Shown here one piece after another: positions 22,182 through 31,600 of a stretch of 64,000 nucleotides of DNA; position 1 is the stretch's first letter; each line of letters opens with the position of its first letter. A program made the translations under genes and the position numbers. A model generated the notes under the pieces. That model was given only the letters and a program-made list of their open reading frames with translations, searched no databases and was not told the DNA's origin. Origin of the DNA: a virus; IMG/VR virus record IMGVR_UViG_3300042553_000326, positions 1 through 64,000 of that record. One strand, given 5' to 3'.

Positions 22182-22786
22182 TATGCCTTACCCCATAGAT
22201 AAGCCGTCTTCGATGATGTGAGTCCTACCTGATCGAAAGCACTGTCGTCAGGGTTAATCTTACGTAATGCATCCTTTGTGGTCATAAACAGTTTAGTGAG
22301 ATTTAATGCTGCCATAGGACTTGAGCACTCTAGCGTAGCTACTGCAGTACCTTCTTCAGGTTCTACAGCATACCCAGTTGTATCAATAACACCTGAGTAA
22401 GCGATTATCAGGTCAGCTACATCAGTTAGATATTGTCCAGGTGCTGCACCACCTAACGTACCATTAGTGGTATTAAGGAAACACACATAGATATTCACTT
22501 CAGAACCTACTACACCGTCTTCAAATAACTGACGCTTACTGAAACTAGGATCCACATATAGTATTTTATAAGTTTCTCTATCGACAGCTTGTGATAACTT
22601 CGGTGCCTCGACCATACTCAAGCCATTGCCTGTTTGAAACGTCACACCAAGCCCAGATACCGTTATAGGGATTGCAGCTGTAGTATCTAGCAGAGTTTCA
22701 GTAGGTGCAATAACATGCACTAGGTAAGCGAATGACACATTATCTAACGCGAGCAGTGTAGTGGCATTAGCACTTATCGATCTCAT
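22181..22786 (-). CDS. Tail tip/hub protein (lambda L-like)
   Basis: Position after Dit; YSG.ID, LECSSP, D..FDQV...WG pattern. Confidence 0.65.
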   Translation of the reverse strand: MRSISANATTLLALDNVSFAYLVHVIAPTETLLDTTAAIPITVSGLGVTFQTGNGLSMVEAPKLSQAVDRETYKILYVDPSFSKRQLFEDGVVGSEVNIYVCFLNTTNGTLGGAAPGQYLTDVADLIIAYSGVIDTTGYAVEPEEGTAVATLECSSPMAALNLTKLFMTTKDALRKINPDDSAFDQVGLTSSKTAYLWGKA

Positions 22787-23391
22787 AGTGCCTCCACAAG
22801 TTTCACTGAACCATTATCGCTAAGAATACCATCTGTGAATTTTATACCTAATGCAACATCTTTTTCGTACAAGGCTGTTAAGGTAACGTTTCCACCTGTT
22901 TTTATTGCGACACCGTTGGTTAATGCTGATACTAATGGAGGTGCTATTCCAACGTTAGCACTAGCAGCGCCTGCATCGGTAACCATATATACTTTGGAGT
23001 GATTAGCGAATTTAATGAATTCTCCAGGAACCATTGCGGATGCGCCAGTGATATTCAGTGTACTAGCACCAATAGATGCTGTACCGTTTACAACGATTCC
23101 GTCAGCAGATGTAGTCAGATTAGGAACCTGCGGCATACGAACGTATATTGGAGTATAAGCCCCATTTTTAACACTATGCACTAGAAATCCTGTAGTCCCG
23201 TTTTCAGGGTGCACATTTGCTTCGATCTCCCACCTTTGCACATTCTGCGAACCAGTGACTCTACGTAGGCTCAGCATATCTTGCACATAAGCAGGTTGGT
23301 TACTTGTAATAGACAATGGTGCAACGAATACTGTTTGTAACTCGGAATCCTGTCCGGTATTTGTACTTGTTTTTAGTATCCCATATTTCAT
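22783..23391 (-). CDS. Distal tail (Dit-like) protein
   Basis: Immediately after the tape measure; QRWEI, GEFIKFANHSKVYMV..D, I.PPL, terminal KLVEAL. Confidence 0.75.
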   Translation of the reverse strand: MKYGILKTSTNTGQDSELQTVFVAPLSITSNQPAYVQDMLSLRRVTGSQNVQRWEIEANVHPENGTTGFLVHSVKNGAYTPIYVRMPQVPNLTTSADGIVVNGTASIGASTLNITGASAMVPGEFIKFANHSKVYMVTDAGAASANVGIAPPLVSALTNGVAIKTGGNVTLTALYEKDVALGIKFTDGILSDNGSVKLVEAL

Positions 23392-23437: not shown

Positions 23438-26400
23438 TTATCTACGGCCCTTCTCAGCGTTGTGCATGTTGACACCTGTCGCTATTTGAGGGATCATCTT
23501 TTGTATCTCAGAGCGTGTCTGACGAGATACATCGCCAGTGATATTAATATTGAACACCTGTTGAGACTTCTGTTCATCCATCCTCTTACTTGAATCAATA
23601 GATGCCATTGCGGGCGTTACAGCTAATGCACCTGCAACTAAGCCACCCTCTGCGAAACGTCTGAAAGAACCGTTGTTAATAGACTCAAGTAGTGGTAAGA
23701 ACTTCTTTGTAGAATTAGCATTTATTACATACTCTCCGTTAGAAAGCATGGTTGCTATACTATCAGAGGTTCCGGTACCAGCACCACTTACTCTACCGCC
23801 GCTAGCCATCCCGTATCCAAAGTCCCATTGCCATTCTGGAATCTCTATGATCATATCTGGAGGAGCTATAGGCGTCGATACTGCAGCACCTGCCGCCGTA
23901 CCACCAGCTGTATCTCCTGTAAACCATTCTTTGGCACCAGATATCAGACCACCGATTCCACCTAACAGGCCTCCACCTCCTGGAGCTGTAGATCCACCTG
24001 TAAATATGCCTTTAATGATATCCCAGGCTGATGTGAGGATGCTCTTGAGATCACCCCAAGCAGACTTCAAAATACCACCGAGATCTCGCCAAGCACTAGA
24101 TAAAGAGGAAAAGAAGAAGTTATTATTATCATTTAGTACACCAGCATTTGTATTAGCAGCTGCATCTAATACTTTAGCTTGTGCATCTAAATTTACAGCA
24201 GACATCTGCTCGGATACTTTATTTTCTGCTGAGAATAACTTAGATCTGATTGTGTTACCAGAATCTACTACTTCTTTCAAAGCGATAGGTGTAGATTGTA
24301 ACGATTCAGTAAGCGAACCAGCGGAGTCAGGTAGTACAGCTCCTAGATTCTTTAGGTTCTTCTGTAGTAGGTCAGTAGCTTCACTTCCATCTGTAGTAGA
24401 ATTCTTCCCACCTAATATGAATTCGTTGAAGTTATCTTTAATACCTTTGAAGTACCCGCCAATACCTTCATAACCAGGCCCCTGCTTGGATTCAAAGATT
24501 CTACCAATATTAGTAAAGCTTTGAGCTTGATTGGCCATATATCTAGCGATGAATCCTTCAATAGTACCTTTCATGAAGGCTTTAACGAAACTATCAACAG
24601 ATACCTCAATAATTCTATTAGTGAAATTATTGAACATACCCCTAATCAGCGATTCCGGACCATCGAACCAGTTCTTGTTACCCTTGAATACTTCTGACAT
24701 ACTTTGTGAAAGTTGTGAAGTGAATTCAGACGCAAGTGATATACCGAGGTTTCTAGCTTCAGGCTTAATGAAGACGCCCCATTTAATGTTAGCCAATGAC
24801 TCGCCTACTGCCTTAGCTATCTGTGGGCCTACAGTCTTCTCTGCTGATTTCTGCTTTCGCATATTCAAAGAGATGATCCGCTTATCACCACCACCTGGCT
24901 TAGCCTCTTCAGCATCAATAGCGTTCCTAGCCTCTTCGAACCTATTAAGGTGATACTCAATAGATTGTTCAGTCCACTCATCAAGACCATCAGCTACTTC
25001 TTTTGTAAAGCCATTCAGCATCTCTCTGAATTCGCTATCGCCTCTACCAGCGAATGTCTGTATAACAGCCTCAGAGAAATTCATGCTGTCAAGCTTCTTA
25101 GAGAATCCGCCCTTTGTCTCATTAGGTACTAACGCGTCCTTTGGAGATGCATTGGCATTAAGGATATCATCAATCCTAGGACCACCTTTTCTGAGAAACT
25201 CCGTAGCTCCAAAGATACCACCAAACGGTTGAAGCGCCTTTGCAGCTTCATCACGTACTTTACCTAATATCTCACGTCTAGCTTCCGAAGTCTCTGCGGC
25301 ATAACCTGCCTCTGCAGTTCTATATGCAACAACCTTATCTCTTATCTTGGTGTATTTATCTAGAGTATCTACAAGTTCGCTTCGCTCGGCATCCCCAAGT
25401 GCAGCTATCTTTTCTATAGATGTGGTAAAGCCTGTGGACTCCAATGCATCTTGTATAACGCCATTCGCTTTATCTAATTCCATATTACCCATGGCATCAC
25501 GAATAGCATTACTAGATTCATCAGCCGTCTTACCGAAAGCTGAACGTATAGCATTGAGAATGCGGTCTCTGATACCACCCAGACCCATAGAGTCAATTAC
25601 CTTATTGAAAGCTGCTAATGCTCTGTCTGTAAGACTTCCTCCACTGGAAGGAACCATCCCTTCTATTTCCTTCGGACCTAATCGTCTGCCAATAAACTTC
25701 TCTACGTAGGCTGGATCTTCAGCATAGCCGCCTTTCTGCAAACCAGTAGCAAACTTGACCATATCAGCTTCGGCGTTTAGAGACTCTTTATAGCGTCTCT
25801 GAATCAAACCTGAGTACTCTTCCTCAAATTCGATTATATCCTTGAAGACTCTGAAATTCTGCTTTATAGGATTGCCCTTAGCATCTTTATCACTACGCGT
25901 CACGAACGGTTGATTACCTACTGCAATCATATTGCCAAGATTATTGCCTACAATCTTTGCACCATAACCAGTCTCAAGACCCCAATGTCGAAGAATCACA
26001 TCTGGACTTACACCCAGTGTATTACCGACACGTTCGGCAGATGTACGATATGTACGTTCGAATAGCGCCTTTCCACCTTCACTAAAGCCCGGTAGCCCTG
26101 CACCACTATTGATTGCCTCAAGCAGACCCTGGTATTTGGCAGTGGACTTCGCATTGACAACAAACTCACCATTAGACAACCTAGCGAGAATACTATCTGA
26201 TGTACCAGTTCCAGCGCCTCTAATAGATCCACCAGCAGCATAACCTTCAGGATCTTTACCCTCATTACCCCTTAGCATCCATTCAAAGAAGTCAAATGGT
26301 GTCTTAAATTTAGTTTGCCTAAACTTAGGAGCTTTGTATCTAGGATTGTCCTCGAAATGCTGAGGCTTACCGTATATCGATGGATCAGGATTGTATTGAG

Positions 26401-29400
26401 CGGGTACAAGATCTCTATACTTAGTGCCCAGCATCAGTGCACCAGCAGCATGCCTTAGTGTCTGTGACATCGGACCTTTATCAGCCATCAGTCTTACCAT
26501 CTCATCAGACATAGCGATGCTCATTATACTGAATGGGTTCTTAGATCCATTGAATGTAGCATCATCTGCGAAATCCCAGGCATCATCCAGAAACTTAGAT
26601 TCACCGGCTGTCTCTTGTGTCAGATTCGATATATAAGCACGCATTGCTAGTGCCATGAATGACTTGCCATCACTGCTTATAGGGAATGGAGCGTTTGCGA
26701 TAGTATGCATATACGCAAGGTATTCTTCATCTATTCTGGCACCACCTATTCTGGAGGATGCGTCAGCGATATAGTTACTCATGCCCAACGCTTTACGATT
26801 ACTCAGTAGTTCATGATGCCCAAATTCGTGGCGACCAATAATATACTTCAATTCATTTTCTAATTGACTACCCTTATTTCCGAACTTAGGATAGGCAATC
26901 ATCTTGTCGCCGAAGCTGTAGCCTCCTTCGAAAGCATCTCCTGATAGTAGTCTCTTCAGGCCAGCGCCTTTGACATCAGAATTTAGTCCACCGTAAAGAC
27001 TATCAAAGTCTATAAAACCGCCTGTCTGAAAGCCTCTAAGCATTCTGTCGCGAGCATCCAGTGTACCAAAGATATGTAACTTTTCGAAGTAATTAAATAA
27101 ATCAGCGTTAGCGGCGTTATCTACAGCAAGATTTTTCCTAACGTGATTACTAGAACTAGCTATTAATCTACCATCAGAATCTCTGACACTACCATTGCCG
27201 TTAGTACGACCAGATAGGATTGTATCGGCTATACTGCTCTTTCTGCTCTCTCGCATCTTTAGCAACGTATGGAATAGATAAGTATTAGCTTTGAACGTAT
27301 GTAAGGAATCTAAAGTGTTTCGACCGTCGTCAATATAACTAAGAGCACTACTAAAACTATCCAACTCGTGTATATCACCAAATGCCCCAAGTGACTTTCT
27401 TATCAGATTAGATACACCTAATTTCCCAGCAATATCTTGCGCAAATGGTAAATCAAAATCTCTTCTATAACGGCGTTGTGGAGGACCAAGTGGATTTACT
27501 CCAATCAGACTCATAGCTTCCTCTACAAGAAGCTGTGCACCATATGGATCAGCATCAGAAACCGATGCCTTACTCCAAAGATTCCTTATACTAGGTATCA
27601 TAGATGGTAGTATCAAATCTCCGTACTTCTTGATGGAGGCTTGAACTAACGGTTCTACAAACTCAGGCTTAACACCTCTCTCTAGGACAGAACCTACCTT
27701 ACCCTCTAATAGATTGACACCATAGTCAAGACGATTCTCTGTAAGAGCGTTGGTGAATAATGCCTTTGCATCTTCCGCAGAAATGGCAACTCCGTTCTGT
27801 CTAGCAGCTGAAATGGCCATTGCTAATGCACGAGGGTCGAATGAAGTAGTTTCAGGTGCATATTTCTGCTTACCATTCGGCAGTTTAGCAGCCATTCTAT
27901 CGTTCTGATAGAAGCTGTTATACCCGCCCTTGGCAAACCCAGGTAATCCACCGTTGTTGATAGTTTCCAGCAAACCTCTATGTCTCGCCGTAGCTGCTGC
28001 ATTGACAACGAACTCACCATTAGACAATCTAGCTAAGATACTATCAGAAGTACCTGTTCCAGGGCCACGTATCGGGCCACCGGCAGCGTTCGCTGGAATC
28101 TGATTTACCTTGGCGGATTCAGTCTGTTGTGGCAGGTCTGTACCAGAAGCATAGCGTAATGCTTTGTATATCAGGTATCCAATACCAGCAGCCACAGCAA
28201 GTTTCGCAGCTATAACGGCAGCAGCAATAACAGCTGGAGAGGAGAATACAGCAGCAACAGCACCTAGAGCGATACCTAAGGTTGTTATGAGATTTCTAAC
28301 TATTGGTGACGTTATACCAAATGCTTGTCTAAGTTCTTTGGCAAGTTCTAAAAATAAGCCATTAAGCAGTGGGCCTATATTTTGAAATATCATCCTAAGC
28401 GATACACCCATAGATGACAAGGATGACAACGTTGTAGTCCCAAGCTGTGTAGCTAGAAGCTTAACAGCCACCCAGGTTCCAATCAACCCACCGCCAACAA
28501 AAGAGCCGAGATCACCTACTGTGCTATCTGTGCCAGGAATTTTGGTATCAGTTTTGAGAGTGTCTCTGACGAAACTACGAGGACCATTTGTCAGAGCGTC
28601 TATATGCTCCTTGATCTTCTTACTTACATTCTCCCAGAGTTCGCCCATCTTATTTACAAACGGGTCTAGCGCATTCTCTTTCACGAATGTAAAGGCTGTT
28701 TTTACAGCCCCTACCAGCGTATCCCAATTGGTCAGAGCAAGTACTAATGCCGCGACACCAACTATAAACAAAGTGATAGGCGCTGTCAGAATTGGCAATA
28801 GGAATGCAACAGCTTTACCTACACCGGCTAGAATTGCACTGGAGAATAACGCTGTAAGCTGAATAGCTGCTACGCCTATGAAAGCGCCTATCGCCTGCCC
28901 AGTTAACGCGGATGCGATAATAGTTCCATATTTTGCCCATTCAGATGATTCACCCATACCTTTGACAATTTCGACACCTATTTGGTAGCCAGCGAATGTA
29001 CCCGCCGTGCCACCGATGCCACCACCTAAAGTCATCAGTCCGGCCTTCGCATTCTTAGAAGCTTCTGCCAATGTTTTATTCAAGTCCTTCAGCTGTGTAT
29101 TAACTGCCTGTCTGTTAGCAGTGGCTGCAGCTAGATCAGCTGGATTACTTTGTCTAGCATTAGCTATTCTTAAGTCAGCATTAGCTAATCTGTTTTGTAA
29201 CACTTGTTGCGTAATCTTGTCTGTGCCGATTTGCGCAAGTCTAGTAGGGCCAGTCGCTATCGTCTTCAATGCGCCTAGCGCTATCTCACGCCCTTTCTCA
29301 AATAGCAGTGCTAACTTGGCAATAACAGTAAGTGTACCAATTAACCCAGCACTACCTGTTATTCCTTTCCCAAGGAAACCCTTTACGATCATATCTACGA

Positions 29401-31600
29401 ATTCTCTGAATCCACCGACTAATCGCTTAGAGGCATCTGCAACCAGCTGCTTATCCAGTATCTTTTCCATGTATAACAACAGTACAGTTGTATATACACC
29501 GAAGGTAAACATCGGTAGCTTTTCGCCGAATATAGGTATCAACTTCTTAGACAGAAGATGTAACGCTGTTCCAACCATTGTGGCTAGGGCTGCAAATACA
29601 GGAACTTGAAAGCTAGATGGCAATGCATTGAAAGCATCATGGCCGAACGCTCTCGACTCTCTGCCCTTCTTTGGACCTCTCGCCACCTGCCCATCTGGGT
29701 CAGAATCAACCATCCTGCCTAGCTTTTCATACTTGAACTTAACCTTATCTTGTATACCTAAGACTTGTTTCAGCGTATGAATAAAGGCGGCATCCGACTT
29801 AGCGAACCAGTCTTTGAAATCAGCTATGAACATCGAGACGTACCTGCCTATGCTGGTAGATAATAAGCTATCCATAACAGATGAGAACTTCTGCGAGAAG
29901 TAACTCTTTATGGACTTCATAACATCTACAAGTTCTGCATAGTTGGACTTAACAGCATCCATGAAGGATAAGAAAGGAGTTTCCTTTTGACCCTGTGCGC
30001 CATTCAATCCGACAGTTCTAACGCCACTGTTTACCCCAACCATCGTGAAACCACGACGATCAGACATTTCTGAGTCTGAATAAACTCTGCCAGGTCCGCG
30101 ACCGATTTTCTCTGGGACTTTCTCAACAGCACTTCTGGATTTTAAATCCTTCAGATAAGCTCTAATGGTAGTAAGTGTTTTGGAAAAGCTTGTTGTAATC
30201 TTATCGATACTGGAGGATAGACCTCCAAAAATATCTTTGAATACACCACCTATTAATACTCCCGCTGCGACAAATACAGCAACTACTTTAGCAGCCCACA
30301 TTTTCACAGAAGACAGGTCAGGCAAAAATGTCAACAACTCTTTGAACTTAGTTTTATACTGTTCAAAATCGAAGAGACCATTCATCATACCTTTGATAGC
30401 TTCGAATGCATTCCTGGCAATAGCTGGTAAATCTTGGATAAATTTGATCGTATCCAGCATAAGGTCTATGATCGCAATTTCGAACACAGACGCGTAATGC
30501 TGAATTCTTTCAGCGAACTTACCCATGGCTACGGCCATATTGTTTATTTGTTCAGCTGGGCCGCCGGAGCTAGAAAAGAATAGATTAGATATAGCTCTGA
30601 ATAACAGAAGTCCAGATGTCTGAGCATTTTGGAAAGCCTGTGCAAATGTAACACCAACTTTCTTGAACTTAGAGTCCATTACATCGGCCTGACTCAGTAT
30701 TGCTCTAAACACTTCATCAGCAGTAAGTTTACCCTCCTCACCCATCTTACGCAGGTCGCCGATAGCCTTACCCATTCCTTCGGCTATTGCCCTGGCTAAT
30801 GCAGGTGCATTCTCTAACACTGAGCGAAGTTCTTCACCAGCTAAGATACCAGATGCTAAACCCTGGCCTAACTGCAAGATAGCGCTTCTAGCTTCCTGCA
30901 TTGTGGTTCCAGACACAGCTAATGACTTGCCAATAGTAGAAGTCACTCTAGCAACCTCACGTTGGCTCACACCAAGTGTGTCACTAGCTTGGGCAATCTT
31001 GGTGTACAGTGTTGCAATATCAGCTAATGGTGTGCGAGTAGCCGTTGCAATGTGAGTTACATCTCTGAAGGCATTAGCGAACTTAGTAGTGGAATTTGTA
31101 ACTAAATTAATCTTCGTATCGATATTGGTTAAGATATCTGAAAATATAGCTAGTGAGGCAGCTGCACCGGAGGCGACAGTCACCTTAAGCAAGGTATTAG
31201 TTAATCCACCAGTCGACTTACTCGCCTTCTCAGTAACAGATGAGAATTCTGAAACAGATCTAGAATACGTCTGTAATTGTCCAGAGGCTTTATCAAGACC
31301 GTCAGCAGTAAAGTTAGTAGGTCTTCTAAGTGCATTCTTTACCTTATCTACTTCTCTACCGAGCTTTTGTACATTAGCTGTTGCGGTTCCAGTAGCGACC
31401 TCTGCCTTATTGCCTTTTAAACCTTCTTTGAAACTGGTAGTGGACTGACCCAGCTTATCGATTTTCTTTTGTGCTTCATCAGCATTGACTTTAAGCTTTA
31501 TATCATTTACGTTATCCAATCCACGTAACTTAGCTCTTAATCTGTCAACGGTAGAATTAGCTTTCTTTCCATCAACTAATACTTCTAATTCTATTGACAT
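23438..31600 (-). CDS. Tape measure protein (2720 aa) with embedded HExxH metallopeptidase-like and glucosaminidase/FlgJ-like domains
   Basis: Tape-measure domain (QLGQGLASG.L.GEELRSVLENAP), amphipathic repeats, HEFGHH, LETGYG..NNLGN...GYAEDPAY, three GTGTSDSI..LSNGE repeats. Confidence 0.92.
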   Translation of the reverse strand: MSIELEVLVDGKKANSTVDRLRAKLRGLDNVNDIKLKVNADEAQKKIDKLGQSTTSFKEGLKGNKAEVATGTATANVQKLGREVDKVKNALRRPTNFTADGLDKASGQLQTYSRSVSEFSSVTEKASKSTGGLTNTLLKVTVASGAAASLAIFSDILTNIDTKINLVTNSTTKFANAFRDVTHIATATRTPLADIATLYTKIAQASDTLGVSQREVARVTSTIGKSLAVSGTTMQEARSAILQLGQGLASGILAGEELRSVLENAPALARAIAEGMGKAIGDLRKMGEEGKLTADEVFRAILSQADVMDSKFKKVGVTFAQAFQNAQTSGLLLFRAISNLFFSSSGGPAEQINNMAVAMGKFAERIQHYASVFEIAIIDLMLDTIKFIQDLPAIARNAFEAIKGMMNGLFDFEQYKTKFKELLTFLPDLSSVKMWAAKVVAVFVAAGVLIGGVFKDIFGGLSSSIDKITTSFSKTLTTIRAYLKDLKSRSAVEKVPEKIGRGPGRVYSDSEMSDRRGFTMVGVNSGVRTVGLNGAQGQKETPFLSFMDAVKSNYAELVDVMKSIKSYFSQKFSSVMDSLLSTSIGRYVSMFIADFKDWFAKSDAAFIHTLKQVLGIQDKVKFKYEKLGRMVDSDPDGQVARGPKKGRESRAFGHDAFNALPSSFQVPVFAALATMVGTALHLLSKKLIPIFGEKLPMFTFGVYTTVLLLYMEKILDKQLVADASKRLVGGFREFVDMIVKGFLGKGITGSAGLIGTLTVIAKLALLFEKGREIALGALKTIATGPTRLAQIGTDKITQQVLQNRLANADLRIANARQSNPADLAAATANRQAVNTQLKDLNKTLAEASKNAKAGLMTLGGGIGGTAGTFAGYQIGVEIVKGMGESSEWAKYGTIIASALTGQAIGAFIGVAAIQLTALFSSAILAGVGKAVAFLLPILTAPITLFIVGVAALVLALTNWDTLVGAVKTAFTFVKENALDPFVNKMGELWENVSKKIKEHIDALTNGPRSFVRDTLKTDTKIPGTDSTVGDLGSFVGGGLIGTWVAVKLLATQLGTTTLSSLSSMGVSLRMIFQNIGPLLNGLFLELAKELRQAFGITSPIVRNLITTLGIALGAVAAVFSSPAVIAAAVIAAKLAVAAGIGYLIYKALRYASGTDLPQQTESAKVNQIPANAAGGPIRGPGTGTSDSILARLSNGEFVVNAAATARHRGLLETINNGGLPGFAKGGYNSFYQNDRMAAKLPNGKQKYAPETTSFDPRALAMAISAARQNGVAISAEDAKALFTNALTENRLDYGVNLLEGKVGSVLERGVKPEFVEPLVQASIKKYGDLILPSMIPSIRNLWSKASVSDADPYGAQLLVEEAMSLIGVNPLGPPQRRYRRDFDLPFAQDIAGKLGVSNLIRKSLGAFGDIHELDSFSSALSYIDDGRNTLDSLHTFKANTYLFHTLLKMRESRKSSIADTILSGRTNGNGSVRDSDGRLIASSSNHVRKNLAVDNAANADLFNYFEKLHIFGTLDARDRMLRGFQTGGFIDFDSLYGGLNSDVKGAGLKRLLSGDAFEGGYSFGDKMIAYPKFGNKGSQLENELKYIIGRHEFGHHELLSNRKALGMSNYIADASSRIGGARIDEEYLAYMHTIANAPFPISSDGKSFMALAMRAYISNLTQETAGESKFLDDAWDFADDATFNGSKNPFSIMSIAMSDEMVRLMADKGPMSQTLRHAAGALMLGTKYRDLVPAQYNPDPSIYGKPQHFEDNPRYKAPKFRQTKFKTPFDFFEWMLRGNEGKDPEGYAAGGSIRGAGTGTSDSILARLSNGEFVVNAKSTAKYQGLLEAINSGAGLPGFSEGGKALFERTYRTSAERVGNTLGVSPDVILRHWGLETGYGAKIVGNNLGNMIAVGNQPFVTRSDKDAKGNPIKQNFRVFKDIIEFEEEYSGLIQRRYKESLNAEADMVKFATGLQKGGYAEDPAYVEKFIGRRLGPKEIEGMVPSSGGSLTDRALAAFNKVIDSMGLGGIRDRILNAIRSAFGKTADESSNAIRDAMGNMELDKANGVIQDALESTGFTTSIEKIAALGDAERSELVDTLDKYTKIRDKVVAYRTAEAGYAAETSEARREILGKVRDEAAKALQPFGGIFGATEFLRKGGPRIDDILNANASPKDALVPNETKGGFSKKLDSMNFSEAVIQTFAGRGDSEFREMLNGFTKEVADGLDEWTEQSIEYHLNRFEEARNAIDAEEAKPGGGDKRIISLNMRKQKSAEKTVGPQIAKAVGESLANIKWGVFIKPEARNLGISLASEFTSQLSQSMSEVFKGNKNWFDGPESLIRGMFNNFTNRIIEVSVDSFVKAFMKGTIEGFIARYMANQAQSFTNIGRIFESKQGPGYEGIGGYFKGIKDNFNEFILGGKNSTTDGSEATDLLQKNLKNLGAVLPDSAGSLTESLQSTPIALKEVVDSGNTIRSKLFSAENKVSEQMSAVNLDAQAKVLDAAANTNAGVLNDNNNFFFSSLSSAWRDLGGILKSAWGDLKSILTSAWDIIKGIFTGGSTAPGGGGLLGGIGGLISGAKEWFTGDTAGGTAAGAAVSTPIAPPDMIIEIPEWQWDFGYGMASGGRVSGAGTGTSDSIATMLSNGEYVINANSTKKFLPLLESINNGSFRRFAEGGLVAGALAVTPAMASIDSSKRMDEQKSQQVFNINITGDVSRQTRSEIQKMIPQIATGVNMHNAEKGRR

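Follow-up and report, generated by a model that had tools for sequence, protein, structure and literature searches.

A repeated junction module in the enzyme-carrying half of a siphovirus tape measure protein

Lytic domains embedded in tape measure proteins (TMPs) and the processing of TMPs have so far been known as separate facts on a few model phages. Here we describe a conserved junction module that may tie these two features together. The module is a block of about 60 residues, and we found three copies of it in the TMP encoded by a 64,000-nucleotide stretch of viral DNA (positions 1 to 64,000 of IMG/VR record IMGVR_UViG_3300042553_000326; hereafter the window). The window comes from a lake-water siphovirus that has not been cultured, and its genes all lie on the minus strand. 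The module stands at every cargo border in hundreds of TMPs, and the short motif at its borders coincides with the mapped cut in the T5 TMP. As judged from the sequences, simpler TMPs hold the module once, near the C-terminus or before a lytic domain, and it is multiplied in the TMP of the window. Such a pattern would give a rule for predicting the enzymes that a siphophage delivers to the periplasm, together with a sequence-based prediction of TMP cut sites for phages already in culture. The modules would also be natural seams for engineering TMP cargo.

In pb2, the TMP of coliphage T5, cleavage takes place after R1127 while the tail is being assembled, and the site separates a hydrophobic stretch from the muralytic C-terminal piece. 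This piece, pb2C, remains in the tip and is the first to be expelled, into the periplasm; pb2* is afterwards anchored in the opened hub by its last 42-43 residues (PMC10038345). In the pb2 sequence we found AEGG immediately after the R1127 bond, and this is one of only two A.GG motifs in the 1219 amino acids (aa) of the protein. The layout of pb2 resembles that of the TMP in the window: a ruler, hydrophobic spans, a short anchor, a muralytic C-terminal piece and a C-terminal helix that in T5 is bound to the hub. The difference is in number, since pb2 has one junction and one small enzyme piece, whereas the TMP of the window has three modules and three or four cargo segments. As a side observation, the stretch that follows the T5 cut (aa 1128-1160 of pb2, locus L003; AEGGMMYPGVSYQMGEHGTEVVTP) resembles the sequences that follow a lone FA.GG near the C-termini of several TMPs, for example ...GFA.GG.IPG..GS.TPV in P0049, P0050, P0061, and P0068. 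The 'metallopeptidase motif' of T5 may belong to a wider TMP motif.

The lambda TMP, gpH, matures to gpH* of ~78-79 kDa and gpHC, with both the exact cut site and the responsible catalyst described in the literature as unknown. We found that aa 717-835 of gpH match weakly, but in a collinear way, the profile of the module and the tail that follows it, in the order FATGG ... GEFVF ... YATGG ... tail (9.6 bits, E 1.3e-4 for 3 targets). The size of gpH* fits a cut near the FATGG at 733, which would give pieces of 79.8 and 12.5 kDa, and the cut region lies somewhere near residues 690-733. Like the TMP of the window, in which a Gly-rich stretch precedes module 3, gpH has a Gly-rich stretch ahead of its module; unlike it, gpH has a single divergent copy without GTGTSDSI and carries no enzyme cargo. 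The TIGR01541 model (332 positions) covers gpH 472-813, including the lambda copy of the module, and has no match to the TMP of the window at E<=1. The Pfam family Tape_meas_lam_C covers gpH 627-701, upstream of this copy.

Lytic motifs embedded in the TMP are known from mycobacteriophage TM4 and other actinophages (Pedulla 2003; Piuri and Hatfull 2006). The embedded mt3 domain of TM4 counts towards tail length and aids infection, and its deletion gives a shorter tail (Piuri and Hatfull 2006); indications that TM4 gp17 is processed were noted by the same authors. Like the TMP of the window, gp17 has a canonical module at aa 702-768 (E 2e-27) that immediately precedes the region with the mt3 peptidoglycan-hydrolase motif, and unlike it, gp17 has only one module and one enzyme. 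In the actinophage TMP literature that we searched, the lytic motifs are described and the junction module is not.

The module is also present in gp46 of Pseudomonas phage JBD30 (one copy) and gp16 of mycobacteriophage Douge (two copies), whose TMP chains are in PDB entries 8rk3 and 8zdo. JBD30 gp46 differs from the TMP of the window in having no enzyme cargo. Only the last 33-42 TMP residues are resolved in these entries, and the module lies outside the resolved part. Residues 1022-1066 of the JBD30 TMP were predicted to form a 'hook' of two helices and a hairpin, and its authors speculated that the TMP is cut next to the hook, which then anchors the TMP in the baseplate as in T5 (PMC11445458). 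In our alignment, this hook corresponds to the core of the module. That a TMP can bring a working enzyme into the host has a precedent in gp96 of the Thermus phage P23-45, in which a virion RNA polymerase is fused to the TMP (PMC10770324). Unlike the cargo described here, the P23-45 polymerase is N-terminal and acts in the cytoplasm.

The junction module and its spread among tape measure proteins

A first-pass annotation of the window, made from the sequence alone, had reported three repeated blocks with GTGTSDSI, DNA-level similarity among them, an extra GFQTGG, and a C-terminal half built as a chain of segments bounded by the repeats. Our analysis agrees with each of these points, and the reported coordinates were right to within a few bases (Table 1). 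GTGTSDSI is found at aa 1181, 1797, and 2608 of the TMP, and a hidden Markov model (HMM) built from the copies gives the module envelopes in Table 1. At the DNA level, the copies form a repeat family (D1) of three 139-nt members at 23668-23806, 26101-26239, and 27949-28087, which are 60-73% identical and have no long identical runs. The additional GFQTGG is a lone border motif, and P0002, a 2609-aa relative collinear with the TMP, reads GFADGG at the same place. The remaining motifs of the first-pass annotation are found at HEFGHH from aa 1591, LETGYG 1875, NNLGN 1886, and GYAEDPAY 1958.

A search with aa 1160-2000 as the query returned 419 long TMPs, and we examined the best 120 of the 419. 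Every one of the 120 holds two to five copies of the module (307 in total). Copies in other TMPs have HMM domain E-values of about 1e-27 to 1e-31, well outside the range of chance. The consensus reads G(F/Y)A(T/S)GG.(I/V).GPGTGTSDSIPA.LSNGEFVVNA..T.K...LL.AIN.G..P.FA.GG, so that the same short motif, [FY]A.GG, opens and closes each module. About ten residues are invariant or nearly so, namely both GG pairs, two more G, D, GE, and N. The first-pass annotation had called the repeats linkers; this term does not suit a 60-aa block with about ten invariant residues that is equally conserved in every copy. Border motifs also occur alone: we counted 89 lone [FY][AQSGD].GG motifs in the 120 TMPs against 52 expected. 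As an observation of its own, the relatives P0034 and P0035 contain short units (KGYANGGYVNDEDFNMV) repeated two to three times at ~57-aa spacing between full modules, and these units look like mini-repeats made of the border motif alone.

Selection has acted equally on all copies of the module. The first, middle, and last copies are alike in conservation (median 85-90 bits) and keep the same invariant residues, which argues that the internal copies are not decaying scars. For 280 of the 307 copies the nearest copy is in a different protein, and no tandem repeat was found; the copies are therefore not recent internal duplications, and recent duplication within the gene was ruled out as their origin.

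The last copy usually stands 55-70 aa before the C-terminus. It ends 39-71 aa before the C-terminus in 65 of the 120 TMPs, and a conserved tail, NINITGD.SRQT..., then follows. In the AlphaFold2 (AF2) model the tail of the TMP in the window contains a helix at aa 2693-2717, with a predicted local distance difference test (pLDDT) score of about 80. In Douge, JBD30, and T5, structures show C-terminal TMP helices within the hub or the baseplate core, and the modeled helix is likely a plug in the baseplate hub. We also observed that the last ~60 residues, NINITGD(I/V)SRQT..EI..M.P.I..GVN..N.E.G, are kept in most TMPs of the 49-sequence alignment A1, which come from very different sources.

Among cultured phages, the module was found in 650 records, mostly phages of Mycobacterium, Gordonia, Burkholderia, and Pseudomonas. 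By its distribution, the module is a general TMP element that is not private to this phage. Pfam and NCBIfam contain no family dedicated to it, and a full-text literature search with the motif strings of the module returned nothing relevant. The repeated junction module is undescribed in the literature that we searched, in which lytic inserts and C-terminal processing of TMPs are already known. An S24/S26-peptidase-like reading of SDSI...GEFV was considered and dropped, as there is no invariant Lys downstream and the module is too short.

Cargo between the modules

The modules and the lone border motif divide the C-terminal half of the TMP into three segments that we call cargo A, B, and C and a TMP-like stretch (Table 1). 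Cargo C could be identified with the most confidence. It begins 7 aa past module 2 and matches PF01832 with 52.6-58 bits against a cut-off of 30.2. Its alignment to PDB FlgJ chains (E 3.7e-5) places LETGYG on LETGWG of FlgJ in 4qdn and 2zyc. In the GH73 family, the Glu of the (A/G)LETG(W/Y)G motif is catalytic. The similarity identifies cargo C as a GH73 glucosaminidase, a peptidoglycan hydrolase, in line with the glucosaminidase/FlgJ-like muramidase of the first-pass annotation. It is the sole cargo identified in this TMP, which is in this respect a modest example, since the cell-wall hydrolase class is already known from TMPs. The TMP-like stretch after cargo C has no Pfam domain and matches the PHROG TMP families phrog_4200 and phrog_167.

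Cargo B was described by the first-pass annotation as a zincin-like domain. The HExxH motif of this description is there (HEFGH, aa 1591-1595; chance expectation in the TMP 0.008) and is kept in P0002, and a match to a known family is missing in Pfam, NCBIfam, and PHROG. Glu residues that might supply a third zinc ligand lie ~31-32 aa downstream of HExxH, in a comparison limited to two sequences, because in an exhaustive profile-free search of 1.84 billion representatives P0002 was the only homologue of cargo B. The AF2 model of cargo B is unreliable (pLDDT about 40), and fold matches obtained with it are meaningless.

Between cargo B and its P0002 counterpart, amino-acid identity is 96%, with differences at 35% of the conserved codons. 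For the remaining segments of the TMP outside module 2, amino-acid identity is 43-86%. Third-position identity to the P0002 locus (L001) is 66% in cargo B, 53% in module 2, and 33-47% in the remaining segments. The most constrained segment of the TMP by this comparison is cargo B, which may reflect either very strong constraint or a more recent exchange of just this cassette together with module 2. Since the constraint is the strongest in the whole TMP, we argue that cargo B is a real, folded, and functional domain, and we consider it a putative metallopeptidase. A role of the HExxH domain as a general TMP-processing protease was rejected, because the domain occurs only in this phage and in P0002, whereas the module occurs in hundreds of TMPs.

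Cargo A has six relatives in the same search of 1.84 billion representatives: four free-standing proteins of ~250 aa and two TMPs. A third TMP with cargo A, L005, was found in viral contigs. In all three TMPs (P0122, P0125, and L005), cargo A stands right behind the first module; no gap separates it from the next module in P0122, and the gap is ~40-65 aa in P0125 and L005. In this placement, cargo A behaves as a cassette. The family has an invariant Glu in ENR.DYG and conserved NG.G, NH, and DARD motifs. Cargo A has no Pfam match, neither cargo A nor cargo B has a tblastn match in cultured phages, and the stand-alone relative P0123 has no match in the scan of viral contigs. The AF2 model of cargo A is confident in the conserved core only. 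At the level of fold there is a weak lead that cargo A is possibly lysozyme-like or similar to lytic transglycosylases (GH23). An assignment as an SLT domain is unsupported by the sequence, with hhalign against the SLT domains of these TMPs giving E 0.32.

A free-standing 277-aa homologue of cargo A is encoded at L006:5899-6732 (+), between the large terminase gene and the portal gene of another viral contig. For a lysin-like protein this location is unusual, which hints that the L006 homologue is perhaps a virion or ejected protein too.

In P0002, aa 1285-1405 correspond to a decayed cargo A whose N-terminal half is gone. The NG.G and NH motifs are lost in it, and two DARD-like ends persist. 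The remnant exemplifies cargo erosion inside a TMP, and the difference in cargo A between the two proteins is an N-terminal truncation with domain decay and not a clean module-to-module swap.

Cargo turns over among homologous TMPs. The segments between and after the modules of the 120 TMPs fall into 53 similarity clusters, and their sequences indicate that cargo is gained and lost between related TMPs. The first-pass annotation had proposed recombination cassettes. This agrees with the different cargo of homologues; the 60-73% DNA identity of the module copies and the one indel relative to P0002, which is no clean swap, do not fit it. Pfam domains in the 120 TMPs include SLT, phage lysozyme, pesticin-type lysozyme, NlpC/P60, LysM, and glucosaminidase, and such enzyme domains are often within a few residues of a module. 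As in cargo C, the linker between module and enzyme is close to zero for the pesticin-type lysozyme in P0049 and for SLT and LysM in P0052 and P0108. The cargo of the TMP in the window looks like periplasmic cell-wall enzymes and not like cytoplasmic effectors. With one cargo identified as a peptidoglycan hydrolase and another possibly of this kind, the enzymes should do their work in the periplasm while the phage penetrates the cell, in the manner of T5 and TM4. The 'effectors' and the 'second injection channel' of the first-pass annotation were therefore overstated.

Possible processing sites or structural joints

We think it probable, with some reserve, that this TMP combines a ruler in the N-terminal half with a C-terminal string of cargo cassettes joined by the module, which is possibly a processing or anchoring unit. 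The N-terminal half would be an ordinary ruler with a membrane-inserting part. The C-terminal half consists, as the sequence shows, of a possibly lysozyme-like domain, the HExxH domain, the GH73 glucosaminidase, and the TMP-like stretch, joined by three modules. When the tail tip opens, the C-terminal parts would exit first, and the enzymes would attack the cell wall from within the periplasm before the membrane-inserting part and the DNA arrive, as has been proposed for T5 pb2C. With less confidence, as a reading that is less likely than not, we suggest that the [FY]A.GG motifs at the module borders are sites of post-assembly processing. Cuts there would release each enzyme as a piece of its own, and the module core on the upstream side of a cut would be the hook by which the rest of the TMP stays anchored in the opened hub. 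It is a somewhat unlikely further step that the module is a portable 'cut here and hold here' unit with scissile borders and a core that binds the opened hub. If true, the multiplied module would make the TMP a real polyprotein from which several enzymes, released in a set order, reach the periplasm before the DNA does. It would also provide the long-sought lambda gpH cleavage site and a general rule for TMP maturation.

Several observations speak for processing: AEGG follows the T5 cut, the approximate lambda cut is near FATGG, the parts of the TMP are in a T5-like order (hydrophobic spans, module, enzymes, C-terminal helix), and the JBD30 hook was predicted at the module core. We infer a cut at the module borders from a short motif coincidence, with a profile comparison that is not significant (hhalign E 0.27).

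Several points weigh against processing at the borders. None of the mapped cuts is in a TMP with the canonical module. The T5 parallel is a four-residue motif found after the fact; the module profile finds nothing in T5 pb2, and the hhalign comparison aligns only 16 residues, so homology of the pb2 C-terminus with the module was rejected. When diverse T5-like sequences were sought for an intermediate profile, all of the relatives recovered were at least 95% identical. The lambda cut site is placed to about +/-20 residues only. A cleavage site would not require a block of 60 aa with many invariant residues, and three hooks per chain would have no obvious use if the hub seats only one. The AF2 monomer of the module, computed with the 49-sequence alignment, is mostly coil with one short helix (pLDDT 53-88, mean 64). 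Lastly, the term cell-wall enzymes is secure for the glucosaminidase only, as cargo A and B are without a confident fold or family.

Alternatively, the modules may never be cut and may be structural joints of the intact TMP, short segments whose folding depends on the trimer or on contact with the tail tube, Dit, or the hub lumen. Such joints would hold the globular inserts in step with the helical ruler, or they would dock the chain at assembly or after ejection, and the enzymes would do their work without being detached from the TMP channel. The long conserved block with its invariant G, D, S, E, and N and its equal conservation everywhere agree with such joints, and a mostly extended monomer with one helix is expected for a segment that requires a partner. 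The JBD30 hook prediction fits as well, and the shortened tail of the TM4 mt3 deletion implies that inserts contribute to the ruler when the tail is assembled. No cut has so far been mapped in a TMP that bears the module. However, the lambda and T5 TMPs are cut after assembly close to the border motif, there are the indications of TM4 gp17 processing, and tethered enzymes would have a short reach. We regard uncut joints as a serious possibility that is still unlikely on balance.

It is highly improbable that the modules act mainly at the DNA level, as conserved landing pads for recombination, homologous or illegitimate, that shuffles cargo between TMP genes, with the internal copies being scars without a protein role. 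The 53 clusters of cargo segments, the nearest relatives of most copies in other proteins, and the recurrence of cargo A right after a module in unrelated TMPs and as a free-standing gene would agree with such shuffling. However, the modest DNA identity without long identical runs does not, the undecayed internal copies indicate selection on the protein as in the terminal ones, and cargo A in P0002 shows truncation and decay in place of a module-to-module swap.

A true polyprotein, in which a GG-specific protease cuts every xxxGG and effectors enter the cytoplasm beside a MuF-RNA polymerase, is scarcely credible: the paired GG-ending motifs at each cassette border and the RNA polymerase delivered by the P23-45 TMP (PMC10770324) are in its favor, but a protease was recognized in 0 of the 10 head and tail open reading frames (ORFs) scanned, the HExxH domain within the chain is too restricted to be the general processing enzyme, and the identified cargo, possibly also the second, acts on peptidoglycan outside the cytoplasm.

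Gene context and coordinates

The product of the ORF at 23438-31600 is a siphovirus tape measure protein. It matches TMP_3 (PF20155) at aa 154-336 with E 3.4e-53 (180.7 bits against a cut-off of 41) and TIGR02675 at aa 224-297 with 74.2 bits against a cut-off of 21.35, and many PHROG TMP families also match the 2720-aa protein. The long ORF is real, because a collinear relative of 2609 aa exists (P0002, locus L001). Cultured phages have no DNA nearly identical to the window.

Table 1. Features of the tape measure protein gene in the window, in order from the whole gene to the C-terminus
Feature	Coordinates	Strand	Description and basis
Tape measure protein (TMP) gene	23438..31600	-	2720 aa, 291.5 kDa, stop codon included; ORF list and translation
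TMP_3 domain	30593..31141	-	aa 154-336; PF20155
Hydrophobic, membrane-span-like stretches	28166..28924	-	aa 893-964 and 1100-1145; Kyte-Doolittle scan
Junction module copy 1	27911..28099	-	aa 1168-1230; NAAGG ... GTGTSDSI ... LSNGEFV ... IN.G ... GFAKGG; module HMM, DNA repeat D1
Cargo A	27035..27910	-	aa 1231-1522 (~290 aa); ENR.DYG with invariant Glu, NG.G, NH, DARD
Lone border motif GFQTGG	27017..27034	-	aa 1523-1528; separates cargo A from cargo B
Cargo B	26252..27016	-	aa 1529-1783 (~255 aa); HExxH domain, HEFGH at 26816-26830, putative metallopeptidase
Junction module copy 2	26060..26251	-	aa 1784-1847; module HMM, reference copy of DNA repeat D1
Cargo C	25691..26041	-	aa 1854-1970; GH73 glucosaminidase / FlgJ-type peptidoglycan hydrolase; PF01832, PDB FlgJ
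TMP-like non-enzymatic stretch	23819..25690	-	aa 1971-2594 (~620 aa); Gly-rich end adjoining module 3; phrog_4200, phrog_167, translation
Junction module copy 3	23630..23818	-	aa 2595-2657; canonical place 63 aa from the C-terminus; module HMM
C-terminal tail	23441..23629	-	aa 2658-2720; conserved NINITGD.SRQT... helix; alignment A1, AF2

In a Kyte-Doolittle scan (window of 19 residues, threshold 1.6), the last hydrophobic stretch of the TMP stops 23 aa upstream of module 1, and no such stretch is found downstream. By PHROG matches of the neighboring ORFs, the TMP gene lies between the genes of the major tail protein and in the chaperone position on one side and the gene of the distal tail protein (Dit, 22783-23391) on the other. 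On this distal side, the distal tail protein is accompanied by a tail protein and a J-like central fibre.

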